From: an uncultured Desulfobacteraceae bacterium
Lineage (GTDB): Bacteria; Desulfobacterota; Desulfobacteria; Desulfobacterales; JALSRD01
Direction: 5' to 3'
DNA: 64,000 bases
Assembly: GCA_964442705.1 (NCBI GenBank)
Contig: CAYUAQ010000003.1
Location: forward strand, 102-64,101
Shown: in pieces, positions 16,366 through 59,451 of the stretch
Layout: every line of letters begins with the position of its first letter
How positions within the stretch are numbered: the first letter of the stretch is position 1
The notes under the pieces: model-generated
Told to the model about the DNA's origin: nothing
Databases searched by the model: none
What the model saw: only the letters and a program-made list of their open reading frames with translations
Translations under genes and position numbers: made by a program

Positions 16366-16376
16366 AGGGATCTTCC

Positions 16377-25802: not shown

Positions 25803-25870
25803 GATGTTCGTACCGTGGCTGCAGTGCATCGCAAACAGTTTTTCGCTCCGACCATAGACATATTTTTTTC

Positions 25871-25899: not shown

Positions 25900-25997
25900 T
25901 GCCAAATTCTTCTGACTGAGCTGTTGGAAAACGGCACCGCTGCCGCTTTTTGCGGCTTACAGTTCAAGTGATTTTAAAATTTTACGGGAGTCGACAG

Positions 25998-30060: not shown

Positions 30061-30087
30061 TAAAGCTTCCCGTGCATGTGCCGATAA
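30061..30087 (+). promoter_or_regulatory. Sigma-28 (FliA) promoter for the motA-motB (PomAB-like) operon
   Basis: TAAAGCTT-N11-GCCGATAA, a near-perfect match to the TAAAGTTT-N11-GCCGATAA consensus, 169 nt upstream of the ATG. Confidence 0.75.
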
Positions 30088-41396: not shown

Positions 41397-41423
41397 TAAA
41401 GCCGGCCCCTGCTTGGCCGATAA
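41397..41423 (+). promoter_or_regulatory. Orphan sigma-28 promoter
   Basis: TAAAGCCG-N11-GCCGATAA on the plus strand, pointing into a 440-nt stretch with no recognisable gene. Confidence 0.7.
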
Positions 41424-43263: not shown

Positions 43264-43284
43264 CTTGATCTCATGGTGGCCGGG

Positions 43285-44844: not shown

Positions 44845-44925
44845 GGCGGTCTCAGAAATTCCATCCGTTCCTTACACCATCGCCGCTTTTTTTTCAAATA
44901 CGGAAAAGTTTTTTTCAAAAAAGCT

Positions 44926-44952
44926 TAAAGTTATTCCGCCAAAGTACGATGA
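44926..44952 (+). promoter_or_regulatory. Possible sigma-28 promoter for flagellin
   Basis: TAAAGTTA-N11-TACGATGA. Good -35, but only 5/8 match in the -10. Implies a leader of about 145 nt. Confidence 0.35.
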
Positions 44953-45104
44953 AAGAACTCAAAGGCAATTTTTTCGTCGGAAAGGAGGCCCAGAAAAAAG
45001 ACGACAGCCGAGAACGACACATCCAGTCAACAGCCGATGTTATCGGCGCCATTCAGACGGTCGGCAGAAGGCCGATCGCAAAACCTTAGAAAAGGAGAAA
45101 TAGC

Positions 45105-45914
45105 ATGTCTTCGATTACCCTGACTTCCGGAATGCGGCAGAACCTTTTTGCGCTTCAGAAAACCTCCTCCCTGATGGAGCAGACCCAGAGCCGGCTGGCC
45201 ACGGGCAAGAAGGTCCAGAGCGCCCTGGATGACCCCATCAACTTCTTCGCGGCCCAGAACCACCAGCAGCGCGCCGACGACCTGGCCTTTCGCAAGGATG
45301 CCATGAGCGAGGCCATTCAGACCATCAAGGCCGCCGACAACGGTATTTCGGCCATTACAGATTTGATCGCCGCCGCCAAGGCGACGGCCCAGTCGGCCCT
45401 GTCGACGTCGGATACCACCGAGCGAGCAAGTCTCGCCACGCAGTTTGATGGGCTGCTCGATCAAATCGATTTTCTGGCTTCAGATTCAGGCTACAAGGGC
45501 ATCAACTTCTTGAACAATGAATCGATGACGGTGGCATTTGACGCCGAAGGTGATAGCACCATTTACCTGGAAGGGTTCGCGGGAAGCTCTGGCGGGCTGG
45601 CGATTGATGATGCTACTAATAGTTGGGCGGATGCCGCTAATATTGAAGCCGCAATCGACGATCTGGACACTGCCAAGGATACGCTGCGCACCGAGTCCAA
45701 GGAACTGTCCAACAACCTGAGCGTCATCACCACGCGCCAGGACTTCACCACCAAGATGATCAACACCCTGGAAGACGGTGTGGCCAACCTCACCAACGCC
45801 GACATGAACGAGGAGGGGGCCAACATGCTCATGCTCCAGACCCGCCAGGCACTGGGGACCACCTCCCTGAGCCTGGCCTCCCAGGCGGCGCAGTCGGTCC
45901 TGAGGCTGTTTTAG
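45105..45914 (+). CDS. fliC: Flagellin (short, alphaproteobacterial-like type)
   Basis: 269 aa. N-terminal LTSGMRQNL...L..Q..LATGKKV.SA.DDP. C-terminal NMLMLQTRQALGTTSLSLASQAAQSVLRLF. Confidence 0.95.
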   Translation: MSSITLTSGMRQNLFALQKTSSLMEQTQSRLATGKKVQSALDDPINFFAAQNHQQRADDLAFRKDAMSEAIQTIKAADNGISAITDLIAAAKATAQSALSTSDTTERASLATQFDGLLDQIDFLASDSGYKGINFLNNESMTVAFDAEGDSTIYLEGFAGSSGGLAIDDATNSWADAANIEAAIDDLDTAKDTLRTESKELSNNLSVITTRQDFTTKMINTLEDGVANLTNADMNEEGANMLMLQTRQALGTTSLSLASQAAQSVLRLF

Positions 45915-46003: not shown

Positions 46004-46678
46004 ATGATTCCGTCAGATTTGAGTATCCAGCAAAACAATTTTCTTTCTACCAGTCGATCCTCGGGGATTGAAACAGCCGAACAGTCGCGTGCCGACGTCA
46101 AGGAGGGAAATTCTCCGGATGTTCATAAACGCAATCCTGACGGCTGGGTCAAGATCGATCGCAGCGGCTTCCCTTTCAGCAACAGGCAGGCATCGACTTC
46201 GAATTTGAATTCCGTCGCCCGCACGATCCGGCGGGCGGACGAAACCATGCAGGAAATCGGCCGGCACATCGACGACATGAAGAGCCGGCTGCAAACCCAC
46301 GTCAAGAATTACCCGCCTTTTCCTCCCGGCAGCGAAGAGCGCGTGAAGATGCTGAAGAGCTTCTCGGCCTTCCGCAGGCTCATCGACGATCTCACTGTTC
46401 CCCCCGACGACGATTCCGCGGCCAGGATAATGAATTCCGCCCCTGCCTGGGATGGGGGAATAGTTGTCGAGCACAAGGGATTTGCGAAAACCATCCACAG
46501 CCAGCCCGTGGGTACGGGGCCGGACGGGATCGACATCCCGCGGCTTTCTGAGGCTGCCACCGACTCGGATTTCCAATCTATGATTGGGAAACTCGAAAAT
46601 GCCGCCAGGACCCTCGAATCCCGAAGGGCTGGATTGCAGGCCGATGCCAACGGTATTTTCAATCCGCCCGAAGCCTGA
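46004..46678 (+). CDS. Hypothetical protein between flagellin and flbT
   Basis: AGGAGG RBS 8 nt before the ATG at 46004. 224 aa. No family recognised. Confidence 0.55.
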   Translation: MIPSDLSIQQNNFLSTSRSSGIETAEQSRADVKEGNSPDVHKRNPDGWVKIDRSGFPFSNRQASTSNLNSVARTIRRADETMQEIGRHIDDMKSRLQTHVKNYPPFPPGSEERVKMLKSFSAFRRLIDDLTVPPDDDSAARIMNSAPAWDGGIVVEHKGFAKTIHSQPVGTGPDGIDIPRLSEAATDSDFQSMIGKLENAARTLESRRAGLQADANGIFNPPEA

Positions 46679-46709
46679 ATCAACCCATATTAACCAGGGG
46701 GCTTATTTC

Positions 46710-47099
46710 ATGGCACTGAAAATTACACTGAAACCCCGCGAACGCATGGTTATCGGTGGCGCGGTGATCGCCAACGGTGATTCCCGCAGTCAGTTCACCA
46801 TCGAAAACCGTGTGCCGGTTCTGCGGGAGCCCGACATCATGGCAGAGGAACGCGCTGACTCCCCGGCCCGGCTAATCTATTTCGTGATTCAGCTGATGTA
46901 CATCGATTCCGAGCACCAGTCGGTATACTACGACAGCTACTGGCGCGTGGCCCAGGAACTCGTAAAGGCGGCGCCCTCCACCGTGGCCTTCATCGATCCC
47001 ATCAGTGAGTACATACTCAGCGACCGCTACTACCTGGCCTTGAAAATGGCCAAAAAACTCATGGCCTACGAAGAGGAGGCGCTCAACCGTGTACAGTAA
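46710..47099 (+). CDS. flbT: Flagellar biosynthesis repressor FlbT
   Basis: MALKITLKPRERMVIGGAVIANGD...VLRE.DIM...PARLIYF..QLMYID parallels Caulobacter FlbT as recalled. Confidence 0.85.
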   Translation: MALKITLKPRERMVIGGAVIANGDSRSQFTIENRVPVLREPDIMAEERADSPARLIYFVIQLMYIDSEHQSVYYDSYWRVAQELVKAAPSTVAFIDPISEYILSDRYYLALKMAKKLMAYEEEALNRVQ

Positions 47100-47466
47100 C
47101 GTGTTGAAGACTTACGAGAGCGTTGACAAAAACACCATGTCCGGCCGGGAAACCGAGGCCCGGGTGCTCACCAAGGCGGCTCTGAAGCTGAAGCAGTGCC
47201 AGCAGGGGTGGGATGAACCCGATCGGGATGACCGCCTGGATGAAGCCCTGAAGTACACCCAACGCATCTGGAGCATATTTCAGGCCGAGCTTTCCAAGCA
47301 GGAAAACCCTCTGCCCACGGCCCTCAAACGGGACCTCCTGCGGCTGAGCGCTTTCATCGACAAACGCATCTTTGAAACCATGGCTTTTCCCGCCCCGGAA
47401 AAGCTGAACATCCTGATAGACATCAACCGCAATATTGCAGCGGGATTGAGGGAGTCAGCCGGATAG
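47089..47466 (+). CDS. flaF: Flagellar biosynthesis regulator FlaF
   Basis: 125 aa, GTG start overlapping the flbT end. ...TEARVLTKAA...RIWSIF...LP..L...L..LS.F......IDINRNIAAGL fits FlaF. Confidence 0.85.
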   Translation: MYSNVLKTYESVDKNTMSGRETEARVLTKAALKLKQCQQGWDEPDRDDRLDEALKYTQRIWSIFQAELSKQENPLPTALKRDLLRLSAFIDKRIFETMAFPAPEKLNILIDINRNIAAGLRESAG

Positions 47467-47575: not shown

Positions 47576-50500
47576 TCACCTCTCATAGGTTCCTGTCTTG
47601 GGATACACATCCCCCTGCCCGGCACATTTGGCATACAGTTTCAAAACTTCTTTGTCAGCGTGCTTGCTGTCGATGGCGGCTTCCGCCAGGGCCTTGGCGA
47701 ATTCGGGTCTGCCGGAATCCAGAAGCCCCTTGGCCAGTTCATGGCAACGGATGGCGAGCCCGGGACCGATGGCTGTGCGTGACAGTTTGTCAAGTAGCGC
47801 CATGGCTGTTTCCTTGTTTCCTGCGGCACAGTTGGCCGCCGCCAGCAGGAATTGTGCCGGAAGATATTCCGGCAGCCGCCCACAGAGCTTTTCCAGCGAC
47901 GCCAGGGCCTGCTCCGGGTATCCCAGGTGAAGCTTGGCCAGGGCGAAATGGTAATGTCCCTCCTTGGAGTCCGGGAGCAACGCCAAGGCCTTTTCCGCTG
48001 TTTCCAGCACCTTGTCGAAACGGCCCAGGCTGCAGTAGGAGATCCCCAGGTAGATGTAAGCCCTTGGCTCGTGGGGCGCTTCTGCAATATAACGATGCCA
48101 GAGTTCCACGGCCTCGGCATGTTTTTTCAATATTTCGGCCTGAACGGCGAGTTCTCTCAAGGCCACGGGTGCACAGCCAGTCTCATTAAGTTTCTGACGG
48201 CCAATCTGGTAGTACATTTCTCCTTTCTGAGTGGTTTTCCGGCGGTCTAGTTTTCCATAGTGGTGTATCTGAAGATGGCATGGTTTCATTGCTATACCGG
48301 CCTTTTTCAGGGAAGGTTCCACCATTTCGTGCACCGGAAAATCAAACCGAATGGCAGGATCATTCGGGAATATACGGATCTTGGCGCTGGGCGTCCATCC
48401 TGTTCCGGCCTCAACTTTTCCATAGCGGCCTTCATTGGCCTCCCAGAGGACCATATTGCTGTCGAGAGTGTAGTTGCGGGTGTTGACGACAAACGCCTGT
48501 CTGCGGCGTGACGACTGACGGCACAGGCGTCTGAAAAGACCGTATTCCAGGGGCGACAGCGCCTCGTCGGCATCCATGACGAAAATCACTTCTCCCCTCG
48601 CCAGGGACAGTGCGTGATTGCGGGCCGCCGCAAAATCACCGCTCCAGTCGAAGGTGTCGACACGGGCACCGAAAGCCCGGGCGATGTCCGGGCTGCGGTC
48701 GGACGACCCGGTGTCCACCACGATGATTTCATCGACCACGGGCTTTACGCTGGAAAGGCACTTTGCCAGATATTGCTCTTCGTTTTTTACGATCATGCAC
48801 AGGGACACCAGGCCGCGTGATGTTGTGTTTTCCTTTTCAGTGGTGCCCAACTTTTCCCGCAATTTGAGCGCCGTAGCCAGGATGCCGTCTTCGACACCGA
48901 AATCAGCCATGGCCGCTTCGATTTCACCCATGGCTTCAGAATAAGCCTGCAGGTGAAGGAGAATGTCAATACTCATGTAACGGATTTTTTTGCTGTGAGG
49001 ATAGGCAGCCGCCCCCTCTTCGACAATGGGGCGGGCCCGTTCATAGGCATTCAATTGGGAAATGGCGTTGTGATAGGCCGAGGCGATGTCATGGTCGGCC
49101 GGGGAAAGGATGAAGCCGTTCTCGTATAAGTCGAAGGCGGTTCTTTGGTCCCCGGCCTCCCCGTGAAGCATGGCAAGGTTGGTGTGCGCCTCTCCAAAAC
49201 CGGGGTCGGCTTCCAAGCTGCGCTGAAACCATTTGCTGGCGGCATCCATGTCGTTTTTTCCCAGGGCCAGCACGCCTTGAATGTTGAGCACGGAGGGGTG
49301 ATGCGGGGCCACCAGCAGCGCTTCTGCCGCCAGTTTGCAGGCCTTTTCGTTATGGCCCAGACCGGCCTCGCAGACCACAGCCATTACCAGTGCGGATACG
49401 TCCTGCGACTCTCGCGGCATCTCGCTGAGCACATGAAGAGCGTCTTCAAACTGACGCGTCTGTATCAGCATAGCGGTAAGGGCGAGATATCCGTGGCGTC
49501 GGCCGGGCAGCAGGCCAATGGCCTTCAGGAAGAGATCTCCAGCCTCATGAATGCGTTCGGCCTGCCAGGCCTTTATGGCGTCTGTTTCCATTGACAGCAC
49601 CAGGCGTTTCTTACCTTCCACGCTTTGGCCGTCTGTTCCGCTCCACTTGAGGTTAAAATATTTTTTACTGCGCCCGGGCAGATTTCTCATCCGGCGGTGA
49701 AGATAGACGTCGCCGGCGATGAAATTCTGATACCCATTTAGCGCTGCCCGCAGACAGAGGTCTTCGGCCTCATATCCGCCTTCACCCACCTCTTCATCGA
49801 AGACGCCTATGTCTTCGATGAGTTCCCGTCGCATGAGCAGACAGAATCCATCGACGGTTTCACTCGCAATGCGGCGGTGGCGGTTGCGTCGATGAAACTC
49901 TGCGGAAAAATCCGTCAGCGGCCCCATGGTGTGGTTCCAGCAGCAAGGTGTTTCCTGGCGGGATTCGGCGGCGTTGGACATGGCGCCGATCACCCCGGCA
50001 TTGGAAGCGCAATTGAAGTGACTGCACATTGCTGCGAGCCAGCCTGGCGTTACTTGCACGTCATTGTAAAGCCTGAGGATGAATTCCCCCCGGCTGGCAG
50101 CGATCCCGACATTAAAGGCTGCCGCCATGCTGGTTCCGGATTCGCAGGACACCTGACGGCAAAGCTCATTTTTTTTGAGGTAGCTCCGGAGCCATTTTGC
50201 AGATCCCTTGGCCATTCCGTTGTCGATAATGATGATTTCGTGGCGTTCGGAAGTGTGCCGATCGACGCTTTCTAAGCATCGACGCAGCTGTTTCACAGGA
50301 CCTGCGGCCGGAATCAGGATGGATATCAGCGGCGGATGGTTTAACCCGGTTTCGGCGACTGCTCCAGGGGCCAGGGTTGTCTTGCTTTCGCTTTTCCCGG
50401 AAAGAGATGGTCGTGAACCGGCGTCGGAGCGCCCGGAAGTGTTTTCCGGCGCATTTTTCGAACTTTCCAACCGTTCCAAGTACTGGCGGGCATCGTCATT

Positions 50501-53500
50501 GCCGGGGTCCATGGCCAGAAGCCGCCGGTAATACGCTGCGGCTTCATCCAGCTGGTTCAGCGCCAGGCTGATATGGCCGGCCATCAGCAGGAGCCCCGTA
50601 TCCCGCGGGCGTTTGTTGACAAGGTCTCTATAGATAGCAAGGGCTTCCCTCTTACGGTCAAGTTCCACCAGAGTAAAGTCAGCCAGGTTTTTCTGGAAAT
50701 GCGGATTGTCCGGCGCAAGGTGTACGGCTCTGACATAGTGCCTTCTAGCCTTATCAATGGCACCTGCCTCGTGATAGAGCACAGCCAGGTCGTTGTGAGC
50801 CATGGCGAAATCGGGAAAAGCCGCTATAAAAGCCGTGATTTTTTCGATGGCACTGCCGGCCGGATCATTCTCGAGGGTCGACAGAAGCTCGGTATACATG
50901 GACTCGGCTGCCGGCGCGACCGCCGCTTTTTCTGGCTCAGGGCGAGTGATTTGCAGGCTTTCTAAAGCCGTGCGATTGTTGGGGTCGACTTTCAGCACGC
51001 GTTCATAGAAACTGTGGGCATCATCTAGGCGTTCGAGCCGGAGACAGATATGGCCCATGGCCAGAAGGGCTTCGGTGTCGAAGGGGTCTTTATTGAGAAC
51101 GCCGACATAGATGCCCATGGCTTTTTCGATCTCTCCAAGGGCCACGCAGTAAAAGTCCGCCAGGTTTTTCTGGTAAACCGTATTTTCGGGGTCGATTTCC
51201 ACCGCTTTGCGGTAGGAGGCGAGGGCGTCCTCGCGTTCGCCGCGGTGGTGGTACAGTACCCCGAGGTCGTTGTATGCCGGGGCAAAAAGGGGAGAATCCT
51301 TCGTCAACTCCACAAGCTTTTCAACCGCTTCGTCGTGCTTCTGCGACCGGACAAGTCGCTGTATGCCCTGATATCTGGATTGCACCATCTCTGTGGGCGC
51401 AGTGGCGGCAGCAGGTTTACGCTCCAGCGCTTGGCGGCGGTTGATGATTTTGCCTGCGGAACGGGCCGTGTTGTACATCTCGAAGATGCGTCGATTCTCT
51501 TCAGCCTGGCGGTTGCGGTTGGAGTGCTCGATGCTGCCGGGTGATTTCAGGTAAAGGCCCAGCAGTACGGGGATATGCAGAAACGTTCTGGTTTGGGATA
51601 TGCGCAGCCAGAATTCATAGTCGCCGGAAGTGACGAATGACCCATCGAAATATCCATATTCGTCATGGATCTCCCTTCGCCACATGGGCTGCGGGCCGAC
51701 AAAGCATCCCTTGCTGAGCAGGTCGTCGCGGTCGAAATTCATCCAGCGATAGAATCCCACCGGCGTGCAGTGTTCGAAGCGCTCGTTTTCGGTTTCAGTA
51801 ATGATCACATCTGCGTAAACCAAGCTGATTTCGGGAAGCGTTTCCAGAATGGTGCTCATTACCTCGAAGGCGTCTTTGCGGTGCCGGTCATCGGTGTTGG
51901 CATTGGTGACGTACTTGCCGCGGGCTGCTTTTATGCCGCGATTCCAGGCGGCATAGACCGTTTCGCGCTTTTCGGTGCGAAGGTATTTGATGTTGCCATA
52001 GCGCTGTTGAAACTGCCGTATGATTGTAGATTCTTTCTGCTGGGAGCCGCTGTCAACAACGATGATTTCGAGACGTTTGGCGATGGTCTGATTTTCCAGA
52101 TCTTCCAGGCAGCCGCGGATGAGGTTCTCGGCGTTGTAGGTGGAAACAATGGCAGAAATCAGGGGGGGGACATCAGGAAACGAACGCGAGATGCGATCAC
52201 CGTTTTTGATCTTCTTTCCCCAGTCAATATCCCAGATATCCAGATCAGAAAAATAATCAAGGCCATATTCATTGAACCAATTTAGAACTTGGGTTTCGCG
52301 CCAGTGGTCTGGCAGGTTATATCTCGATTCATCGAAGAACATATATCCAGCAAACCACTCTGCAGGGGCAGGCTTTAGCTTTAAATTGTTTTCATCCTTG
52401 CTGGGGGCATAAAGCGCATTTATTTTTTCGGTTGATTTGCCAGGCTCTCGAATACGTTCCAGACAACGATACCAGCTTTGTTTAATAAGAAGGTTCCGCC
52501 AGTTTACAAACTGGAAATGAAGCAGGCCGAATGTGTATCCGGGAATGACTTTCAACCTGCCTGAAAGGCTTTGCGGGATACGGGGGGTATGTATGAAAGC
52601 GGATTCATAGGAACACTTGCCATCGTCGCAGAATATTATACCCTTGTAATTGTTAGTCCAGACAGAGTCGTCAAAACGATAGTTATGTACACTCCGCCAC
52701 AGCTGAATCCATACCAGCGATATCCGCTCACCCGGTTGTAATTCCAGAATTTTATGTCGTAAGAAATTGTTTTTTGCGCAATTTGCGGTGAACATTTCAT
52801 CTGCGTCAATCACAATGAAGTGGGTTCCCCCTATTTTTCTGCCATACTGCAGAATCCTATTTCGATCACCTGGTTCGTCTCGATGCCATTTGTCTTTTTT
52901 GATTATGGCCTCAATGTTACAATCGTTCGCCAGATTTTTTACAATTTCGACGGTGTTGTCTTCAGAAGCGTCATCAAGGAAGACAATTGCATCGGTATAA
53001 AGGGAAAGTGAACGCAAGCATGGCTCAATGATATTGGCTTCATTCCGGGCCGTAACCAAACCGACTATTTTTTTGGTTCTATATGCTGATCTTTTATTTT
53101 TCTTTTCCGACTGGGACATCGTAAGTCTTATGTCATTGTGGGCCCTTGTCTGGCTTGCAGTAGAAGTTGGTCTGCCAGAAGTTTTCAAAAGAGGCGCCAT
53201 CAATTCAACGTCAATGGTATCTTTTTTCTCGCCCCGATTGGTTTTCATTTGACTTAAAGCACGCAGTGAAACAAATTTGAGCCCCTCGTAATAAAAGTGC
53301 TGGTGGGGGTTAAATATAATATCGTCAATGGTGGTATCGTGATATTTTATTTCGGAATTATGGCTACCGATTTCGGCCTCATTTCGATACAAGATATTTT
53401 CATAACCGTAATGCAAGTAATCGATATCGCGTGCCGGACGAATGCCATACACGGCCATCGTGGAGCTGCCGTCGATGCAGAAACATTCCTTGTCAACGCC

Positions 53501-55804
53501 ATTGGCGCTCAGAAACTTGTTGTATTCGTCAAGCAGGACGTAAAACTTTTCGAAATGTTTCAGCTGGGCATTATTAAGGAAATGGAGGCTGTTTTCGTTA
53601 AAGAATATTTGGGCTAAACGAACCGTTTCCTCGTGGGTATCATTGATATGTACCGAATGGTTGCCGACGCCAAAGAGTTGCCGTATGTCTTCTTTGCATT
53701 GCTTAATATGATTCAGGCTATTGGCTTCAACTAAAAACACCCGAACAGGCCCGGCGCCACGAAAACATTGCTCCGCTTTGTGTTTGGCTCCCCTGAACAG
53801 TGTGGACCAATTGCCCAACCAGTTTTCCCCCCTGTACATTTGTTTAATCAACAGATGCGGACCATTGTTGTGAAGGTGGACATCTTTGCTATAAAAAATG
53901 TCCGCATGCCTGCGAATAATCTGCAGCACTTTGCTTACTTTGCCTTCGGCAGTGGGAAAAACGGTTATTATATACGTATTTTTCTTTATTTTGCTGTATT
54001 CATACGCCATTGCATCGGCGTATGAACTGTCCAGTTGACGATCCCGGAAAAAGGTATAGTTGTATGAATTGGTATCACGGTTGAAGCAAGCCACGCGGAC
54101 ATTTTTCTTCAAGAGACAACCCAACGCCAGGCGGTGACTGCCGTCAATAATCGTCATGTCGCTTCCCACGGGTATAAGGGATCTTGCCTCATTAAACCCT
54201 TCCGCCATAAACGACCGGCATAATTCGTGAAATGAAGAAAGAAAATCCTCTGCAGATACTTTGCCTGAGCCGTCAGACTCAAAAAAGCCATTCAACGCAT
54301 ACAGATGAGCAAGATATAATTGTCGCCCCCAGTTGCTTTGTAGTTTCAATAAATGAAACCGTCCATAGATGATTTTTGCCATTACATCAAATCGGCAGGT
54401 GTTTATCAGGGAGGTGGGGTCGACGGTTTGAATTTTAACAAGCCCCTTTTTCGGCAAATAATTAATGTTGAAAAGATGTGGATTTATTTTTGAGCGAATC
54501 TCCTCGATTTGAAGCTGTTTCGAATCGTTAGCGCCCGGAAGATTCGTCGTCCCGTGATCATGCCGTACCGACGGAATGTCCGCAAAAAATAGATCCTGAC
54601 GATTATCATAAACCACAGAATATCCGTGCAAAGAAAGCAATTCGATAATATCGTCTCTGCGACCACCATATTCCACAACAATTAACTGGGGTTTGTACTT
54701 TTCAAAATCCAGCCCTTCCAGGACTTCGAAATCGTGTCCTTCGGCGTCAATAGAAAGTAAATCTATATCCGTCAGATTGTTTTCAGCCAGGATCTCCGTT
54801 AATTTTTTTACTTGCACTTTTTCTTTTGTCCACTGGGCACCGTATTTACGGGTCCACCGCTCGGTTTCAGCTGGATCAAGCGCGGAGACGTCGCTGCCCC
54901 ACTCTGGCAGATGCGGATAGGTGGACACATTCATTTCAGCCGTTCCGTTGCGATTGGAAACCGCCACTTGAATGCATTTGACATTTTTCCCTAAATAGGA
55001 ACGACGCAACTTTTCAAAATTTTTTTTGATCGGCTCTACACAAAGCCCCTGCCAGTCATATTTTTCCACAAGACGTCGAACGTTACTATAGTGCTTTCCA
55101 TCAAAAGCCCCCACCTCCACAAAGACCATGTTGCGGGGCTTTCGCTCGGAGAAATACTGCTCGATGAATTCATCCTGCCCCAGTTGAGCGTAATACCCTC
55201 TGGCGTGCTTGGGAAGTTCTCGCGCAAACCAAAATTCTCTATTAAGGGCGAGAACCTTTCTGCAGGCCTCTTCAACCAGCCTGACATTTCCCAGTTTTTC
55301 CGCAAGCAGCGCGACAAGCCATGCGGCCTTCCATTTTTTGGCCTGAAGAGCGGAAAAGGCTTCCGCCATTTCAAGTGTTTTTTCCAAAAGATGGCGTGGG
55401 AATTGTTTTGTCAGCCGGGATTGAAAAACACCTATGGCGTCATCCAGGTGTGAGGTAAGATACTTGCGGAAAGCTTCCGGCTCTTTCGGTAACTGAGAGG
55501 TCAGCAGGAAATAAAACATCGTCTCCCCCGACGACCGGTCTAACTTCAGCGATGTCCTGAAAAACGATGAAGCGGCGGATAACTCGTCTCTGATTAGCAG
55601 TATCCGCCCGAGATTGAAATTGGCACGCACATTCTGCGGATTTTCCGCCAATAGATGGGAACATTCTGCATAAGCGGAATCGAGTTCACCACAAAACAGA
55701 TGATGTTCGATGCGTTCATGGCGTGCCGTCAATTTTCTATTCTTGGTCATTATGGTCCCTTTAAGGAGAGAAATGTTTACAGGCGCTGTTCGGGTGGTCA
55801 TCAT
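47576..55804 (-). CDS. Giant multidomain protein: TPR + FkbM methyltransferase + ParB/NTase-like region + 4 x GT2 glycosyltransferase + interleaved TPR blocks
   Basis: Uninterrupted 2,742-codon ORF. Motifs read from the translation: VEVGAFDG (FkbM), IIDGSHRLA, GS-x12-DID, four GT2 cores (LDDASEDNT/DADE; VVDSGS/NTDD; IIDNG/EAED; VVDTGSSD/DADE), many TPR repeats. An alternative start at M19 (55750) is possible. Confidence 0.85.
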   Translation of the reverse strand: MMTTRTAPVNISLLKGTIMTKNRKLTARHERIEHHLFCGELDSAYAECSHLLAENPQNVRANFNLGRILLIRDELSAASSFFRTSLKLDRSSGETMFYFLLTSQLPKEPEAFRKYLTSHLDDAIGVFQSRLTKQFPRHLLEKTLEMAEAFSALQAKKWKAAWLVALLAEKLGNVRLVEEACRKVLALNREFWFARELPKHARGYYAQLGQDEFIEQYFSERKPRNMVFVEVGAFDGKHYSNVRRLVEKYDWQGLCVEPIKKNFEKLRRSYLGKNVKCIQVAVSNRNGTAEMNVSTYPHLPEWGSDVSALDPAETERWTRKYGAQWTKEKVQVKKLTEILAENNLTDIDLLSIDAEGHDFEVLEGLDFEKYKPQLIVVEYGGRRDDIIELLSLHGYSVVYDNRQDLFFADIPSVRHDHGTTNLPGANDSKQLQIEEIRSKINPHLFNINYLPKKGLVKIQTVDPTSLINTCRFDVMAKIIYGRFHLLKLQSNWGRQLYLAHLYALNGFFESDGSGKVSAEDFLSSFHELCRSFMAEGFNEARSLIPVGSDMTIIDGSHRLALGCLLKKNVRVACFNRDTNSYNYTFFRDRQLDSSYADAMAYEYSKIKKNTYIITVFPTAEGKVSKVLQIIRRHADIFYSKDVHLHNNGPHLLIKQMYRGENWLGNWSTLFRGAKHKAEQCFRGAGPVRVFLVEANSLNHIKQCKEDIRQLFGVGNHSVHINDTHEETVRLAQIFFNENSLHFLNNAQLKHFEKFYVLLDEYNKFLSANGVDKECFCIDGSSTMAVYGIRPARDIDYLHYGYENILYRNEAEIGSHNSEIKYHDTTIDDIIFNPHQHFYYEGLKFVSLRALSQMKTNRGEKKDTIDVELMAPLLKTSGRPTSTASQTRAHNDIRLTMSQSEKKNKRSAYRTKKIVGLVTARNEANIIEPCLRSLSLYTDAIVFLDDASEDNTVEIVKNLANDCNIEAIIKKDKWHRDEPGDRNRILQYGRKIGGTHFIVIDADEMFTANCAKNNFLRHKILELQPGERISLVWIQLWRSVHNYRFDDSVWTNNYKGIIFCDDGKCSYESAFIHTPRIPQSLSGRLKVIPGYTFGLLHFQFVNWRNLLIKQSWYRCLERIREPGKSTEKINALYAPSKDENNLKLKPAPAEWFAGYMFFDESRYNLPDHWRETQVLNWFNEYGLDYFSDLDIWDIDWGKKIKNGDRISRSFPDVPPLISAIVSTYNAENLIRGCLEDLENQTIAKRLEIIVVDSGSQQKESTIIRQFQQRYGNIKYLRTEKRETVYAAWNRGIKAARGKYVTNANTDDRHRKDAFEVMSTILETLPEISLVYADVIITETENERFEHCTPVGFYRWMNFDRDDLLSKGCFVGPQPMWRREIHDEYGYFDGSFVTSGDYEFWLRISQTRTFLHIPVLLGLYLKSPGSIEHSNRNRQAEENRRIFEMYNTARSAGKIINRRQALERKPAAATAPTEMVQSRYQGIQRLVRSQKHDEAVEKLVELTKDSPLFAPAYNDLGVLYHHRGEREDALASYRKAVEIDPENTVYQKNLADFYCVALGEIEKAMGIYVGVLNKDPFDTEALLAMGHICLRLERLDDAHSFYERVLKVDPNNRTALESLQITRPEPEKAAVAPAAESMYTELLSTLENDPAGSAIEKITAFIAAFPDFAMAHNDLAVLYHEAGAIDKARRHYVRAVHLAPDNPHFQKNLADFTLVELDRKREALAIYRDLVNKRPRDTGLLLMAGHISLALNQLDEAAAYYRRLLAMDPGNDDARQYLERLESSKNAPENTSGRSDAGSRPSLSGKSESKTTLAPGAVAETGLNHPPLISILIPAAGPVKQLRRCLESVDRHTSERHEIIIIDNGMAKGSAKWLRSYLKKNELCRQVSCESGTSMAAAFNVGIAASRGEFILRLYNDVQVTPGWLAAMCSHFNCASNAGVIGAMSNAAESRQETPCCWNHTMGPLTDFSAEFHRRNRHRRIASETVDGFCLLMRRELIEDIGVFDEEVGEGGYEAEDLCLRAALNGYQNFIAGDVYLHRRMRNLPGRSKKYFNLKWSGTDGQSVEGKKRLVLSMETDAIKAWQAERIHEAGDLFLKAIGLLPGRRHGYLALTAMLIQTRQFEDALHVLSEMPRESQDVSALVMAVVCEAGLGHNEKACKLAAEALLVAPHHPSVLNIQGVLALGKNDMDAASKWFQRSLEADPGFGEAHTNLAMLHGEAGDQRTAFDLYENGFILSPADHDIASAYHNAISQLNAYERARPIVEEGAAAYPHSKKIRYMSIDILLHLQAYSEAMGEIEAAMADFGVEDGILATALKLREKLGTTEKENTTSRGLVSLCMIVKNEEQYLAKCLSSVKPVVDEIIVVDTGSSDRSPDIARAFGARVDTFDWSGDFAAARNHALSLARGEVIFVMDADEALSPLEYGLFRRLCRQSSRRRQAFVVNTRNYTLDSNMVLWEANEGRYGKVEAGTGWTPSAKIRIFPNDPAIRFDFPVHEMVEPSLKKAGIAMKPCHLQIHHYGKLDRRKTTQKGEMYYQIGRQKLNETGCAPVALRELAVQAEILKKHAEAVELWHRYIAEAPHEPRAYIYLGISYCSLGRFDKVLETAEKALALLPDSKEGHYHFALAKLHLGYPEQALASLEKLCGRLPEYLPAQFLLAAANCAAGNKETAMALLDKLSRTAIGPGLAIRCHELAKGLLDSGRPEFAKALAEAAIDSKHADKEVLKLYAKCAGQGDVYPKTGTYER

Positions 55805-55823
55805 TTAACCCCATTTTGCACTT

Positions 55824-55839
55824 TGCAAAACACATGCCA
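55824..55839 (-). promoter_or_regulatory. Sigma-54 promoter for the giant ORF
   Basis: Minus strand reads TGGCAT-GTGTT-TTGCA (GG-N10-GC). Only about 10 nt of leader before ATG 55804, or about 64 nt if M19 is the start. Confidence 0.7.
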
Positions 55840-56090
55840 TGTTTAAAAGGGGAAAAATCATAAAAAAACAATCAGTTATAGATTATTAGGGTATAGGAAT
55901 CGTATCAATGACCGTCAAATTACTGACGGTTTAGATGAACCCCTTCCCAGCGGTGGCGTGATTTCAGCAAAATACAGGCAAGGCCGTCTCTTTGCTTATA
56001 GAAAATCCTGGCCCAGGCGATAAATTGGTCGTATCAGAGAGGAAGCGGGACAGTAGCCACGGAATCAAAACAACCATCGTACGGTTGCCC

Positions 56091-56117
56091 TCAAGAACTC
56101 CCACCACTTGCCGATAA
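56091..56117 (+). promoter_or_regulatory. Possible sigma-28 promoter for the TPR gene
   Basis: TCAAGAAC-N11-GCCGATAA. Perfect -10, weak -35. Confidence 0.45.
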
Positions 56118-56148
56118 TGAACACAGCGCAAAGCAGAAAGCATTGAAC

Positions 56149-57336
56149 ATGGACATCATCGGTATCAGCAATCCGGACAACCTTTTCAGTGCCACAGTGG
56201 TGCAGTCGCAACAACTGGAGGCGATGGCCAACGATGCGCTCAAGAGCGGCATCGACCGTTACATGCGCCAGGACTACAAGGGGGCCATCGCCGAGTTTCA
56301 GCGCTCGCTGGGGTTGTCCCAGGGCTCCGGCTATGCCGTGGATGCGGCCAATTACATGGCCAGGGCCTACATGGCGCTGGGTGACAGCGAGCGGGTGATA
56401 GCGTCCTATGAGACCGCCATTCGCCTGGCTCCCTTGCGTGACGACAGCCACATCAGCCTGGGCAATTTTCTTTATGCCGAGGAACGGTACGAAGAAGCCG
56501 CGCGAGCCTATGAGCAGGCCGTCAAGCTGAATCCGTCTGCCAACAACCGATTCGCATTGGGTCAGGCCTTCATGCAGACCGGGCGCTACGACGATGCCGA
56601 GCAGCAGTTCAGCGAAGTGTCCCGTCTCGAGCCCACCAAGCCCAACGGCAGCTACGGTCTGGGGCTCACCTACAACCGGCAGGGACGTTATGAGGATGCC
56701 ATACGCGCATTTGAACGCGCCATCAGTCTGGACAGCCGTTTCTACGATGCCTATGCGGAAATGGGTTATGCTTACGCGAATTTAGGGCAAATGGACGATG
56801 CCCAGCGGCAGGTGGATTTCCTGGAGCTGGTGGCGCCGGAACTGGCCGGCAACCTGAGCGGGTACATGTACAAAGCGGATCCCCCCAAATTCAGTTTCGC
56901 CTATACCACCGATTTCAGCTATACCATGCCCATGAGGACGTCATTGGCGGCGCTGGACTCCTACCTGGCGGCAGCCAACGCCGAAAAGACCTTTACCATG
57001 AAGTTCCAGTTCGACAAGGAAATGGATCGGGAGTCCGTGCAGAATGTCTTCAACTGGCGCATCGGGCGGTCGACCGGCAGTGGGCCGGGAGAGGCATACA
57101 ATTACGGATTTCAGGTTCCCGACACAGAAGTGCGATTGTCGCCTTTTCCCGATCAGGTGATTTATGACGCTAGAACCATGACCGCCACGGTCTACTTTAC
57201 CATCCGCCAGAATGCCGACGCCGACGGCACCCTCGACCCTTCCCATATCGAATTCCAGTTCAAGGGCAAAGACGAATTCGGCCACCCCATGGACACGGAT
57301 GCCGATCAGTTCAGCGGCTTTTCAGGGGTTGCCTGA
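56149..57336 (+). CDS. TPR-repeat protein with beta-rich C-terminal domain
   Basis: About 5 TPR units in the N-terminal 230 aa. The C-terminal 160 aa are rich in beta-strand-like segments. Divergent from the giant ORF. Confidence 0.8.
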   Translation: MDIIGISNPDNLFSATVVQSQQLEAMANDALKSGIDRYMRQDYKGAIAEFQRSLGLSQGSGYAVDAANYMARAYMALGDSERVIASYETAIRLAPLRDDSHISLGNFLYAEERYEEAARAYEQAVKLNPSANNRFALGQAFMQTGRYDDAEQQFSEVSRLEPTKPNGSYGLGLTYNRQGRYEDAIRAFERAISLDSRFYDAYAEMGYAYANLGQMDDAQRQVDFLELVAPELAGNLSGYMYKADPPKFSFAYTTDFSYTMPMRTSLAALDSYLAAANAEKTFTMKFQFDKEMDRESVQNVFNWRIGRSTGSGPGEAYNYGFQVPDTEVRLSPFPDQVIYDARTMTATVYFTIRQNADADGTLDPSHIEFQFKGKDEFGHPMDTDADQFSGFSGVA

Positions 57337-57556
57337 GCACCGGGGGATTTTGCCGCTGAACGAGCCGCCGTTCTCCGTCTGGCGTTTTCTTTTTGGTATA
57401 GCATCGTTTTCTTGAATGCCGCTCTTCGAATGCACCTCCTGCCTGAAAAAGCACTAATGCGGCATCCTAATCCAGGTGGATCAATGGTACATGACCGGCT
57501 GGATTCCGACTTTCCATTGACCAAGCCAGGGCCGCTCTGATGTGAAAATTCTTCAT

Positions 57557-57579
57557 TTGCAAATTGCAGATTGCAAAAA
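57557..57579. repeat. Heptamer tandem array TTGCAAA-TTGCAGA-TTGCAAA
   Basis: Read directly. A second array, TTGCGAT-TTGCAAA, is at 57831-57844 and a third, TTGCACT-TTGCAAA, at 55816-55829. Confidence 0.85.
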
Positions 57580-58044
57580 TGGACCAGGTGGACCGCAGGT
57601 AGTACCTATAACGGCATCTATTTCTGTGTTTAACTTATTGAATTAAAAGAAAATTAATAGTGACCGAGAGAGGATTGGCGTAATCGCGGTGAAAAAATAG
57701 TTTTCGAGATCAGGCTAATTGTCGGTAAGTTCGCTCGGTAAATACATCTTCACCCTGATAAAATAGTATTTAACCTACTGTTTATTCAAATAATATTTAC
57801 ACTTTAGCCTCCCGGCGCCGGTAGTATCCGTTGCGATTTGCAAAAACAGGCATGGTAGGCGTTGTACTGGCTCCTGAAAAAATACCAAAAAAAATGTTTC
57901 CGTGTGGAAATTTGAGGCCGAGAGCTCAACTACACCATGAAGTATTTGAAACCAGCGGGCACCCCTTCATCTTGAATATCTTCCAAAATTGACATGCCGC
58001 GACATTCCCCGTTGCCGTCCCTGAATCCACGAGTGGAGCAGGGA

Positions 58045-58060
58045 TGGCATTTTTTTTGCT
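58045..58060 (+). promoter_or_regulatory. Sigma-54 promoter for the receiver-less activator gene
   Basis: TGGCAT-TTTTT-TTGCT (GG-N10-GC), 129 nt upstream of the ATG at 58189. Confidence 0.75.
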
Positions 58061-58188
58061 AAATATTGGGGGCGAAATGCCGGTCACAGCTTCCTGGCGG
58101 GACGGCAGGAGAAATCACCGGCTGTTCCCCAAGCACTGCAAAGCCCAATTGAACGCAAAACCTGAGCTCACCACGGAGGAAGGCAGAC

Positions 58189-59247
58189 ATGTATTCAGTT
58201 GCAATTGAGCGGGAACCGGAATTCGCAGGCATTGAAGGGATCAATCTCGTCGCGCGGGAATTTACTTCCAGCAACTACTGTTTCGAAGGCATCGTCGGCC
58301 AGAGCCACGGCATGCGGAAAGTCTTCAAGACCGTCGAGAGGGTGGCCGACAGCGACTCGACCATCGTCATCAGCGGCGAGACCGGTACGGGAAAGGGGTT
58401 GGTGGCCAGGGCCATCCACAACCGCTCCTATCGTCGCGACAAACCTTTTGTCCAGATAAACTGCGGTGCCATTCCGGAAAACCTGCTGGAGAGCGAACTC
58501 TTCGGTCATGAGAAGGGGGCCTTTACCGGGGCGACCGCCGCCAAAAAGGGAAAATTCGAGGCTGCCAACGGCGGTACGATATTTCTCGATGAGATCGGCG
58601 ACATGAATATGGAGCTGCAGGTCAAGCTTCTGCGGGTGCTTGAAGAGTGCCAGTTTGAACGCGTCGGCAGCTGCACCACCATCAATGTGGATGTGCGCAT
58701 CATCGTGGCCACACATCGGGATCTGGAGTCCGCCGTGGCCGAAGGCCGTTTCCGACAGGATCTGTACTACCGGCTGTTCGTGATCCCCATCGTGCTGCCC
58801 CCGCTGCGGGATCGGCACAACGACATTCGTCTGCTGGCAGCGCACTTTATCAACCAGCTCAGAAGAGAAAAGCGGTCTTCCATCGAGGCGTTCTCCAGGG
58901 AGGCCCTCGAACGGTTGTCGCGTCATGATTGGCCCGGCAACGTCAGGGAGCTGAAAAACCTGGTGGAGCGGCTGGTGGTGCTGAACGACGGCCCGCGTAT
59001 CGAAGCATCGGATCTGCCCTCGTCTGTCCTGTCTTCAGCCAGCAATGCCGGCAGCCTCCCTTCCCTGGAGATTTCCGACGAGGGGATTTGCCTGAGTACC
59101 GCCGTAAACGAATACGAAAAAGCCCTGATTACCCAGTCTTTGGAAAAAAGCAAGTGGGTAAAGAAAAAAGCCGCTGAACTGCTGCACGTCAAAAGAACTA
59201 CACTGGTCGAAAAAATCAAACGCCACCAGCTGCAGCCCGCCACCTGA
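58189..59247 (+). CDS. Sigma-54-dependent transcriptional activator without a receiver/sensory domain (AAA+ + Fis-type HTH only)
   Basis: 352 aa. The AAA+ core starts about 40 aa from the N-terminus (GQSHGMRKV...GETGTGKG...GAFTGA). C-terminal AAELLHVKRTTLVEKIKRH. GGAGGAAGG RBS. Confidence 0.9.
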   Translation: MYSVAIEREPEFAGIEGINLVAREFTSSNYCFEGIVGQSHGMRKVFKTVERVADSDSTIVISGETGTGKGLVARAIHNRSYRRDKPFVQINCGAIPENLLESELFGHEKGAFTGATAAKKGKFEAANGGTIFLDEIGDMNMELQVKLLRVLEECQFERVGSCTTINVDVRIIVATHRDLESAVAEGRFRQDLYYRLFVIPIVLPPLRDRHNDIRLLAAHFINQLRREKRSSIEAFSREALERLSRHDWPGNVRELKNLVERLVVLNDGPRIEASDLPSSVLSSASNAGSLPSLEISDEGICLSTAVNEYEKALITQSLEKSKWVKKKAAELLHVKRTTLVEKIKRHQLQPAT

Positions 59248-59435
59248 AAAAAACCAGGTGTCAAAGAACTGACAGAAACTTTCTTTGGCCCTTGACATCT
59301 GGGGGCTCTGCATCCTCTTTCCCTCCTTTTTTGCGGGTTTTGCCAGGCAATCATGACGACCTGGTATCTTTTTAAACATATTAATATCAAATGGTTGCGT
59401 TTATTTACGCTGTTTTCTGGCGAAATGCCCGGTTG

Positions 59436-59451
59436 TGGCAAAGGATTTGCA
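59436..59451 (+). promoter_or_regulatory. Sigma-54 promoter for the response-regulator activator gene
   Basis: TGGCAA-AGGAT-TTGCA (GG-N10-GC), 113 nt upstream of the ATG at 59564. Confidence 0.75.

Follow-up and report, generated by a model that had tools for sequence, protein, structure and literature searches.

The window, by which we mean the whole 64-kb stretch of DNA that was analysed, contains a giant open reading frame (ORF) within a flagellar gene cluster (Table 1). Flagellin, FlbT and FlaF are encoded directly 3' of this gene, and its 5' side carries sigma-54 activators and FliF. The gene for a 397-residue TPR protein lies divergently beside the giant gene, a pairing that relatives conserve. 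In its database version the giant protein is 2,724 amino acids long, with M19 (window 55750) as the first residue; an exact-protein look-up of the giant protein returned no record. SdhA is 82–84% identical to that of Desulfosarcina and Desulfonema, which identifies the host as a Desulfobacterales bacterium.

Table 1. Features of the giant gene and its surroundings, in window coordinates (aa, residues of the giant ORF).
Feature	Position	Strand	Remarks
Flagellin	45105-45914	+	Conserved neighbour, 3' side of giant gene
FlbT	46584-47099	+	Conserved neighbour, 3' side of giant gene
FlaF	47089-47466	+	Conserved neighbour, 3' side of giant gene; GC3 0.74
Giant ORF	47576-55804	-	2,742 codons; glycosyltransferase gene inside flagellar gene cluster
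Host-like core, aa 1215-2742	47579-52162	-	GC 0.562, GC3 0.648, codon usage in host range
TPR block 3	47579-48157	-	
GT2 module D	48245-48805	-	70-71% identity to P0075/P0077
TPR block 2	48905-49567	-	
GT2 module C	49685-50323	-	
TPR block 1	50420-51397	-	Profile matches and internal repeat
GT2 module B	51425-52162	-	PF00535, E 3e-26; nearest is TPR-GT2 family (73-77%)
Seam linker, aa 1201-1214	52163-52204	-	NGDRISRSFPDVPP; end of head homology, start of GT2B homology
AT-rich head, aa 1-1200	52205-55804	-	GC 0.447, GC3 0.48, codon usage non-host
GT2 module A	52205-53056	-	PF13704/PF00535 at aa 917-1011; family homology reaches about aa 1200
Region X, aa 431-880	53165-54514	-	Conserved, Pfam-less; AF2 model pLDDT 94
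FkbM-family methyltransferase domain, aa 230-396	54617-55117	-	PF05050; Pfam, E 1e-20
TPR-like N-terminal region, aa 27-191	55232-55726	-	Weak; under Pfam thresholds
Divergent intergenic region	55805-56142	.	GC 0.438; right-hand end of AT-rich block somewhere inside
Sigma-54-type -24/-12 element	55825-55839	-	TGGCATGTGTTTTGC; 1 mismatch; 21 nt upstream of giant ORF
Candidate sigma-28-like site	56091-56117		Before 397-aa TPR protein gene
397-aa TPR protein	56143-57336	+	Conserved non-TPR C-terminal domain; host composition, GC3 0.74

The modules of the giant ORF follow the order TPR-FkbM-X-GT2A and, beyond a seam described below, GT2B-TPR-TPR-GT2C-TPR-GT2D-TPR. The FkbM domain scores 75 bits against Methyltransf_21 (PF05050), which has a gathering cut-off of 22.7, and the four GT2 modules score 36–93 bits against PF00535 (cut-off 23.3). 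TPR block 1 consists of a unit of about 150 amino acids in tandem duplication, the copies being 44% identical. Residues 420–900 had been labelled 'ParB/NTase-like' in a first-pass annotation of this DNA, a label that could not be substantiated. Neither Pfam, even at E-values up to 10, nor the PDB gave a sequence match to the region, and a Foldseek search with the high-confidence model of region X returned only weak nucleoside-diphosphate-kinase-like matches to one part of the model (E 6e-3, target TM 0.5–0.63). By eye only, DGSHR and GS..DID motifs can be seen in region X.

The G+C content changes sharply inside this ORF. In a sliding-window profile it is 0.51–0.62 from 47.6 to 52.1 kb, 0.40–0.51 from 52.1 to 56.0 kb, and 0.53–0.62 again from 56.0 kb. 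The only long stretch below 0.46 in the window is 52151–55050 (plus 55551–56150), and the head lies about 13 points under the window mean of 0.575. The N-terminal part (aa 1–1212) has a GC of 0.448 (GC1 0.508, GC2 0.353, GC3 0.483) and the C-terminal part (aa 1213–2742) one of 0.562 (GC1 0.619, GC2 0.419, GC3 0.648), so that the shift is seen at all three codon positions. It also separates adjacent domains of the same fold, with a GC3 of 0.446 in GT2A versus 0.681 in GT2B. The maximum-likelihood single change point falls at ORF nucleotide 3602 (window 52203, codon 1200), with two-unit support from 51929 to 52237, and a change point computed from GC3 only falls at codon 1220 (window 52145; support codons 1183–1226). 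The log-likelihood ratio (LLR) is 53.4, whereas 200 shuffles of the codons gave 3.5 on average and never more than 11.0. The first-pass annotation had placed a G+C step at about 52.2 kb from hand counts of 60-nucleotide lines. Those counts were roughly correct, and the computed profile, GC3 and the change point confirm the step. Its claim that the switch takes place within a few tens of nucleotides fits the support interval, and the coincidence that it had proposed with the boundary between GT2A and GT2B is real as well: the Pfam match to GT2B starts at residue 1217, at the change point.

Protein comparison places the end of head-family homology at aa 1195–1202 and the beginning of GT2B-family homology at aa 1214–1216, and the composition change point (52145–52203) falls in this linker of 11–18 residues between the two GT2 modules. 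A run of eight C residues (52162–52169) overlaps the linker. A phase-variable homopolymer was considered here and rejected, as G or C runs of this length occur at chance level (4 observed, 4.5 expected); no length variants of the run were found in Logan contigs spanning the seam. There is no tRNA in the 64-kb window and no att-like repeat bounding the AT-rich block, around which only 14–15-nucleotide repeats at chance level were found. With these signatures of mobility missing, and with a block that consists of one ORF and a promoter region, we rejected a classical integrative island; the lack of tRNA and att-like repeats fits recombination rather than integrase-mediated insertion.

The non-coding flanks had also been described as AT-rich. 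Their G+C is low, as claimed (0.457 at 57400–58180; see Table 1 for the divergent region), but this is ordinary intergenic DNA. Stretches at 25751–26050, 44851–45150 and 59101–59450 are equally AT-rich, and the flanks therefore add no weight to a foreign origin. A search for structured RNAs in the AT-rich non-coding DNA gave no Rfam match anywhere from 44 to 64 kb. Elements like the sigma-54-type one upstream of the giant ORF also precede the giant genes of three related contigs (L001, L108 and L080). Across the whole window, sigma-54 promoter matches are not enriched (10 versus 6.5 expected), and only their positions are suggestive.

Sixteen host genes have GC3 values of 0.67–0.84, the lowest being 0.671. 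Identical codon usage in both halves of the giant gene had been named as evidence against a foreign head; however, only the C-terminal half lies within the host range. Its codon-usage distance to the 16 host genes is 0.79, versus 1.56 for the N-terminal half and 0.55–1.11 for the host genes themselves, and distances to the giant gene of a relative with 42% G+C are 1.52 and 0.72, respectively. The dinucleotide delta* was not discriminating (57 for the N-terminal half versus the host; host segments of 3.6 kb give 42.7 ± 11 and reach 63 at most). In its G+C and codon usage, both off the host, the head has the composition of a horizontally acquired island. The GC3 of the core sits just under that of all 16 host genes, and the core may thus also be a somewhat older acquisition. 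AT-richness is not a property of the head domains, because the G+C of homologous giant genes follows that of their flanks. Most of 32 such genes (31 from genome records and that of contig L001; the GTDB species representatives hold neither the host's own genome nor the L001 genome) are within a few hundredths of their flanks over a span of 0.32 to 0.66, which rules out intrinsic AT-richness as the source of the step.

A comparison of synteny, suggested in the first-pass annotation, showed that relatives keep the core at the same flagellar locus and carry non-homologous heads. The arrangement flagellin-FlbT-FlaF, giant gene, 397-residue TPR protein is kept in nine related contigs, with all or part of the core (L079, L080, L081, L084, L085, L097, L108, L158 and L159). 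In these, GT2D is 50–71% identical to that of the window, and GT2B is 50–77% identical where present, being absent from L158 and L159. Their heads carry a GT4, sulfotransferase, SAM-methyltransferase, Methyltransf_24 or glycerophosphotransferase domain. The contig L001 has an FkbM head like that of the window in a syntenic locus of uniform G+C (0.41), and the protein P0002, a full-length relative, likewise combines this FkbM head with the core. Ten contigs have the giant gene at this one position, with flaF on one side and the TPR-protein gene on the other, and the arrangement of flagellar genes around it is also found in L001, L084, L085, L158 and L159. In L158 the core has diverged about as much as the flanks (flagellin 78%, FlaF 75%, GT2D 70% and TPR block 3 66% identity). 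The step from an AT-rich head to a host-like core recurs in several of these relatives and also beyond them. The giant gene of L158 changes from a GC3 of 0.36 to 0.53 between two domains (flanks 0.48–0.60, LLR 33), that of L084 from 0.35 to 0.49 (flanks 0.53–0.63), and that of L030, from Thermodesulfovibrionales, from 0.29 to 0.48 exactly where a GT2B-like domain starts.

The nearest relatives of the giant protein also change at the seam when modules are compared one by one. The separate phylogenies that had been proposed were run as neighbour-joining module trees, which are simple distance trees with bootstrap values of 45–56% at the head and GT2B nodes, and they are incongruent between modules. 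GT2D with TPR block 3 is sister to the Desulfobacterales proteins P0075 and P0077 (100% bootstrap) and GT2A is sister to P0002 (98% bootstrap, 72% identity), and head residues 221–900 are never sister to P0002. The head itself is of mixed affinity, with residues 1–900 nearest to Phycisphaerae-type proteins and GT2A nearest to P0002. The head family spans at least eight phyla at identities of no more than 60% in genome records, and this patchy distribution, together with the incongruence and the differing heads of syntenic relatives, is that of a horizontally acquired island. No donor of the head was found. Its best matches are only 52–72% identical, and hence either the transfer happened, in absolute terms, some time ago, or the lineage of the donor has yet to be sampled. 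A collection of 5.8 billion proteins, in which metagenome-assembled proteins with 92–93% identical SdhA occur, contains no orthologue of either half above 52% overall; the vertical inheritance of the core is consequently drawn from more distant relatives only. A metagenome scan with an alignment of the TPR protein found no relative closer than 63%. Metagenome run X6, compared at 80% likeness for a related strain with another head, yielded only short and fragmentary contigs.

The giant gene is a modular, in-frame mosaic, whose original head has probably given way to AT-rich DNA that was acquired horizontally and joined at a domain linker. The first-pass annotation had proposed that a foreign N-terminus of about 1,212 codons was fused in frame to a GT2/TPR protein of host composition, and codon usage, trees, synteny and a head family without AT bias support the foreign, in-frame head. 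However, since a giant multidomain gene was already present at this locus, a replacement of the head is most likely, rather than a first fusion. The mosaic had also been called recent, which holds in the relative sense that the head has not ameliorated, but no date can be given.

In the reading that we prefer, the giant gene would be a modular glycan-building enzyme of the Desulfobacterales flagellar locus. Its core, the C-terminal 1,500 or so residues (GT2B-TPR-GT2C-TPR-GT2D-TPR), would have been inherited together with the genes for flagellin, FlbT, FlaF and the TPR protein, and the N-terminal residues, about 1,200 in number (TPR-like region, FkbM methyltransferase, conserved uncharacterised region and GT2A), would form an exchangeable head. 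The present head may have come horizontally from a genome of roughly 40–45% G+C, probably that of another bacterium with an FkbM-type head, and would have displaced an earlier resident head. The left crossover would lie in the short non-conserved linker just before GT2B. Because GT2B is the first block common to FkbM-head genes and the resident core, a joint at this point would be in frame and leave the domains whole. The right end of the exchanged DNA may lie in the divergent promoter region at 55.8–56.1 kb, and the exchange would have come about by recombination that used GT2B and the upstream flank as its anchors. From genomic context only, we infer a function in the synthesis of a flagellin or flagellum-associated glycan, where the TPR blocks may serve as substrate-binding modules and the head may add chemistry of its own, for example sugar methylation.

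Four other explanations were weighed against head replacement. The whole giant gene may have arrived en bloc, already mosaic, with a C-terminal half that looks host-like because an earlier host had a similar composition. The GC3 of this half, slightly under that of every host gene, would agree with such an arrival, as would the lack of a close orthologue of either half from organisms with 92–93% identical SdhA and the giant gene of L084 and L085, which is wholly AT-richer than its neighbours, so that the locus behaves like an island. We nevertheless consider it unlikely, as the codon usage of the C-terminal half is inside the host range, in syntenic relatives the core has diverged to much the same degree as the flagellar genes beside it, and the gene recurs in one and the same slot. 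Less probable still is a reversed polarity, in which the AT-rich head is the older resident of a once AT-rich lineage and the core was replaced later from a G+C-rich close relative. Genome-wide amelioration would then have lifted the GC3 of the head too, as it stands at 0.74 in both the TPR-protein gene and flaF; moreover, the protein nearest to head residues 1–900 is not that of the syntenic relative, and relatives differ in their heads, not their cores. What speaks for this polarity is that every sampled relative with the locus is lower in G+C (0.38–0.46) than the window, and that the sister of GT2A is P0002, a protein from a syntenic locus.

We regard it as very improbable that no transfer took place and that the step arose in one old gene from amino-acid composition, expression level or local mutation bias. 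Ala/Leu-rich TPR blocks do raise GC1 and GC2 in the C-terminal half, but GC3 rises by 0.17 too, and does so between GT2 domains of the same fold; in addition, the head family elsewhere mostly matches the G+C of its flanks, and the heads of syntenic loci are non-homologous. An assembly chimera, made when two homologous giant genes from different organisms were linked through a conserved stretch, might be suspected in what is probably a metagenome-type contig (69.7 kb), the more so as the conservation of GT2 domains can lead assemblers astray. We rejected this explanation, whose probability is close to nil. Logan contigs from two independent samples cross the seam with 0–1 mismatches (51637–52523 and 52042–52302), read depth has no step there in two runs with continuous coverage, and flagellar genes of host composition lie in conserved order on both sides of the AT-rich block.

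Head replacement at this locus may be one instance of a wider pattern, which we put forward tentatively as possible. The linker before a GT2B-type domain might be a reused in-frame recombination joint, and the giant ORF a single-gene cassette system, in which a conserved TPR/GT2 scaffold receives multi-enzyme heads (methyltransferase, sulfotransferase, glycerophosphotransferase, GT4 or GT2) from an AT-rich pool shared across phyla (Desulfobacterota and Nitrospirota). If so, flagellar glycan chemistry would be diversified as O-antigen loci diversify LPS, but within one reading frame.

Flagellin glycosylation islands (FGIs), as in Enterobacteriaceae, Campylobacter, Pseudomonas and Geobacillus, lie beside flagellin in the flagellar locus and comprise glycosyltransferases and functions for sugar modification in variable sets (PMC4875605). 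Their G+C is under the genome average, in Enterobacteriaceae by a mean of 5.2% and by up to 17.7%, and they have been built piecemeal by several horizontal transfers, not en bloc (PMC4875605). The giant gene is like them in adjoining flagellin in a flagellar locus, in the low G+C of its head and in content that varies among relatives, and it holds four GT2 domains and an FkbM methyltransferase. In this comparison flagellin glycosylation by the window protein is putative. In FGIs, however, separate genes are exchanged, whereas the units in the window are domains of a single ORF, and an exchange must therefore be in frame and leave an intragenic seam.

FlmG of Caulobacter crescentus, a flagellin O-glycosyltransferase of 596 residues in a FlaF/FlbT-type system, binds flagellin through an N-terminal TPR domain and transfers sugar with one GT-B domain (PMC7591256). 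Compared by architecture, the window protein likewise joins TPR blocks and glycosyltransferase domains beside flaF, flbT and flagellin. In contrast to FlmG, it combines four GT2 domains of GT-A type and three or four TPR blocks with an FkbM methyltransferase and a further region that is uncharacterised. Pfam gave no match to a GT-B/GT4 domain in the giant protein, whose catalytic domains are all GT2, and it does not have the FlmG-class architecture. A pairing of GT2 with TPR repeats, as in the window protein, also occurs in GmaR of Listeria monocytogenes, a flagellin O-GlcNAc transferase that is single-module and doubles as an anti-repressor. GmaR is not known to be mosaic. In O-antigen and capsule serotype switching and in mosaic pbp genes, a variable AT-rich centre is swapped via conserved flanks, leaving compositional and phylogenetic footprints. 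In the window, one of the anchors would fall within the reading frame, where two domains meet, and the unit would be a multi-enzyme N-terminus of about 3.6 kb.

Low-G+C, horizontally exchanged sugar-modification loci are well established and usually described as sets of separate genes. Here the exchangeable units appear to be domains of one giant reading frame, with a joint marked to a few tens of nucleotides and similar joints in relatives and in another phylum. Such joints would chart, from natural cases, where multi-enzyme glycosyltransferases tolerate fusion. The locus is likewise a concrete probable case of domain-level horizontal transfer in the largely uncultured Desulfobacterota of vents and sediments, and a candidate for flagellin glycosylation in a group for which we found no characterised case in the literature.

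The giant proteins P0002–P0058, annotated as 'FkbM family methyltransferase', share an FkbM-X-GT2A(-GT2B) supermodule with the window protein at 45–72% identity, often followed by further glycosyltransferase and TPR modules. They come from Desulfuromonadaceae, Geobacter/Geomonas, Phycisphaerae, Kapabacteria, Verrucomicrobiota and cyanobacteria. Unlike the window gene, most of their genes are uniform in composition and equal to their own host. Annotation by the first domain conceals the conserved core and the mosaic history; among these giant proteins, the FkbM head and the flagellar-locus core occur together only in the window and in P0002.

The first-pass annotation had described a sharp G+C seam inside a giant open reading frame on the minus strand of the window, and both a sliding profile and a change-point scan bear this out. 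In a 300-nt sliding profile, G+C is 0.51-0.62 at 47.6-52.1 kb, 0.40-0.51 at 52.1-56.0 kb, and 0.53-0.62 again from 56.0 kb. The first 1,212 codons of this single very long ORF have a G+C content of 0.448 (GC1 0.508, GC2 0.353, GC3 0.483), and the remaining 1,530 have 0.562 (GC1 0.619, GC2 0.419, GC3 0.648). A single-change-point likelihood scan places the step between the glycosyltransferase modules GT2A and GT2B, with a log-likelihood ratio (LLR) of 53.4 versus a mean of 3.5 and a maximum of 11.0 in 200 codon shuffles; a scan of GC3 only gives a nearby position. Outside the AT-rich block, G+C nowhere in the 64-kb window stays below 0.46 over a long stretch. The non-coding stretches flanking the ORF, also singled out as AT-rich, are indeed so (0.438 and 0.457), but do not differ from other intergenic stretches of the window.

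Features of the giant gene and its surroundings (domains from Pfam)
Feature	Protein or ORF position	Window position	Strand	Remark
Giant ORF	2,742 codons	47576-55804	-	
Weak TPR-like region	aa 27-191			
FkbM methyltransferase	aa 230-396			
Conserved region	aa 431-880	53165-54514	-	no sequence match in Pfam or PDB
GT2 module A	starts aa 917			
G+C step	codon 1200, ORF nt 3602	52203		2-unit support interval 51929-52237
GC3-only step	codon 1220	52145		support codons 1183-1226
C8 run (coding strand)		52162-52169		
GT2 module B	aa 1217-1420			
First core TPR block	aa 1470-1790	50420-51397	-	
GT2 module C, TPR block, GT2 module D, last TPR block	in this order after first core TPR block			
Database start	M19	55750		
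Sigma-54-type -24/-12 element		55825-55839	-	TGGCATGTGTTTTGC; 21 nt 5' of first ATG
Sigma-28-like site		56091-56117	+	one mismatch
Further sigma-28-type matches		30061-30087; 41397-41423	+	
397-aa TPR protein		56143-57336	+	
Long non-coding region		57337-58188		850 nt, AT-rich
Sigma-54-like element		58045-58059		within the preceding region
Mirror ORFs	519 codons each	43273-44832; 43285-44844	+; -	

Homology to proteins that share the head stops at aa 1195-1202, homology to proteins that share GT2B starts at aa 1214-1216, and the residues between the two blocks (GDRISRSFPDV) are not conserved; the composition step therefore sits in an inter-domain linker. The C8 run lies exactly in this linker and was considered as a possible site of strand slippage, which would cut the protein short after the head. 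However, the window has 4 G/C runs of this length where 4.5 are expected by chance, and public contigs showed no variation in its length. The stretch at aa 420-900 had been labelled ParB/NTase-like. Pfam and PDB sequence searches found no match to it, and Foldseek returned only weak nucleoside-diphosphate-kinase-like matches, to one part of a confident AF2 model of aa 431-880 (pLDDT 94). These ~450 residues are conserved in at least 46 homologues. Their C-terminal half occurs without GT2A in loci of DPANN archaea, Neobacillus, Chlamydiae, and Burkholderiales (L050-L052, L061-L077).

A seam of this kind might be an artefact, but it is crossed by contigs of two independent samples, X1 (51637-52523, 0 differences) and X5 (52042-52302, 1 difference), and the only runs with continuous coverage of the region, X1 and X2, show no step in depth at the seam. 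The window stretch was found in several public runs, comprising one labelled organism and hydrothermal-vent metagenomes from other studies. In addition, flagellar genes of host composition lie on both sides of the AT-rich block: flagellin, FlbT, and FlaF immediately 3' of the giant gene, and on its 5' side a divergent gene for a 397-aa TPR protein, two sigma-54 activators, and FliF. The window also encodes dnaX, sdhA, tolB, and several sigma-54 regulators. Its SdhA shares 82-84 % identity with Desulfosarcina/Desulfonema proteins (92-93 % with MAG proteins), which identifies the host as a Desulfobacterales bacterium.

Codon usage separates the two halves. The codon-frequency distance to 16 host genes (GC3 0.67-0.84) is 1.56 for the N half, outside the range of the host genes themselves (0.55-1.11), and 0.79 for the C half, inside it. 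Distances to the giant gene of L001, a related contig of 42 % G+C, are 0.72 and 1.52, respectively. The dinucleotide signature does not discriminate the N half.

The halves also have different relatives. The full-length protein matches many giant 'FkbM family methyltransferase' proteins, from sources including Desulfuromonadaceae, Geomonas, Anaerohalosphaeraceae, cyanobacteria, and Verrucomicrobiota. Alignment of most of these proteins is confined to the opening ~44-45 % of the query, with 45-50 % identity. The C half, used alone as the query, returned a separate family of TPR/GT2 giants, mostly from Desulfobacterales/Thermodesulfobacteriota, several of which span 99 % of it at ~45 % identity without an FkbM head. 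By module, the nearest relatives are proteins P0004-P0008, P0030, and P0035 for aa 1-900 (52-70 % identity), the L001 giant protein P0002 for GT2A (72 %), the TPR/GT2 family for GT2B (73-77 %), and P0075/P0077, giant proteins of loci L158 and L159, for GT2C, TPR2, GT2D, and TPR3 (50, 48, 71, and 66 %, respectively). P0077 comes from a Desulfobacterales MAG. Neighbour-joining trees (100 bootstraps) place P0075/P0077 as sister to the window GT2D+TPR3 (100 %) and P0002 as sister to GT2A (98 %) but never to the head (aa 221-900); GT2B is poorly resolved. The module phylogenies are thus incongruent.

The 38-kb contig L001 (uniform 0.42 G+C, no step inside the giant gene) has the window's order of TPR protein, giant gene, and FlaF-FlbT-flagellin, with sigma-54 activators and FlgBC-FliE-FliF nearby and flanking proteins 50-75 % identical to their counterparts. 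L158 and L159 represent the same locus (flagellin 75-78 %, FlaF 73-75 % identical), and a metagenome scan with the 397-aa protein alignment added seven further syntenic contigs (L079, L080, L081, L084, L085, L097, L108). The C-terminal core is wholly or partly kept in every one; GT2D is 50-71 % identical where on contig, and GT2B 50-77 % where present, being missing from L158 and L159. The heads differ: GT4 with a GNT-I-like region and a separate SAM-methyltransferase gene (L084), sulfotransferase plus GT4 and, besides, a TPR-sulfotransferase gene (L085), GT4 (L108), Methyltransf_24, GT4, and GT2 (L080), GT2 and Methyltransf_23 (L079, L081), or glycerophosphotransferase, Methyltransf_23, GT2, and GT4 (L158); in L097 sulfotransferase and DegT are separate genes. 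An FkbM head is found only in the window and L001. The seam is therefore the border between a conserved core and a variable head, and the proposed in-frame mosaic of a foreign head on a host-like core draws support, with caveats, from codon usage, trees, and synteny. The first core TPR block is a ~150-aa unit duplicated in tandem (44 % identity between copies). A homologous TPR stretch precedes GT2B in P0002, L084, and L085 and follows it in the window, so the core, too, has undergone rearrangement.

Could the head be AT-rich through domain constraint? In most of 32 surveyed homologues (G+C range 0.32-0.66) the giant gene is near its flanks in G+C and has no seam, so the AT-richness here reflects history instead. 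Seams recur in L158 (GC3 0.36 in the head, 0.53 in the rest; flanks 0.48-0.60; LLR 33), between GT2 and GT4 domains, and in L084 (0.35 and 0.49; flanks 0.53-0.63; LLR 19), at codon 1245 of 2,077. In L030, a Thermodesulfovibrionales MAG, GC3 is 0.21-0.37 to codon ~1200 and then 0.41-0.53 (LLR 52), with the step at the start of a GT2B-like domain; the AT-rich part holds a GT2A 62 % identical to that of the window. The AT-rich stretch of L030 (giant gene 8051-16978) extends ~5 kb upstream of the ORF, and the L002 giant gene (10001-20815, Desulfuromonadaceae MAG) drops in G+C over roughly 450 codons in mid-gene; steps in both are as sharp as in the window.

Checks for tRNAs, att-like repeats, and mobility genes found none, and the AT-rich block consists of one ORF and its promoter region, so recombination is the likely route of head exchange. 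GT2A is directly followed by a GT2B-type domain in 16 FkbM-family proteins; GT2B would thus be common to the resident core and an incoming gene with an FkbM head, and crossover at this first shared block would put the joint at the observed linker. The right end of the block lies somewhere in 55.8-56.1 kb. Flagellin glycosylation islands are variable, lower in G+C than the genome, and assembled by several transfers (PMC4875605). The same process here acts on domains within one giant ORF, where the joint is locatable in a linker and recurrent.

Flagellin/FlbT/FlaF accompany the giant gene in ten contigs, and flagellin-linked X2-family members also occur in L053, L054, and L057. In Caulobacter, which shares the FlaF/FlbT system, the flagellin glycosyltransferase FlmG binds flagellin through a TPR domain and glycosylates it through a GT domain (PMC7591256). 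The FlmG catalytic domain is GT-B, in contrast to the GT2 domains of the giant protein, which consequently falls outside that class. From this company and precedent, we infer that the giant protein would assemble or decorate a glycan that is linked to flagellin, or at least associated with the flagellum, with the head supplying lineage-specific chemistry.

Promoter-like elements fit membership of the giant gene and the 397-aa TPR-protein gene in the flagellar regulon. Near-identical sigma-54-type elements precede the giant genes of L001 and, with other heads, L108 and L080; the short distance of the window element from the first ATG favours the database start. The window holds more sigma-28-type matches than expected (22 versus 10, two perfect), and the one directly 5' of the TPR-protein gene suggests a late flagellar gene. 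The product has TPR repeats and a conserved non-TPR C-terminal domain. Its gene is a constant, divergently oriented neighbour of giant FkbM/GT2 genes in Desulfobacterales, as are the genes for counterparts of about 32-33 % identity at loci from Desulfuromonadaceae, Geobacter, and Geomonas; such genes lie at L001 7782-8972 and L002 6094-7278. The protein may act as a specificity or chaperone partner. The non-coding region in front of the sigma-54 activator gene, of unusual length for intergenic DNA in the window, has no Rfam match. Elsewhere, two ORFs of exactly equal length mirror each other on opposite strands, the plus-strand product lacking a Pfam match.
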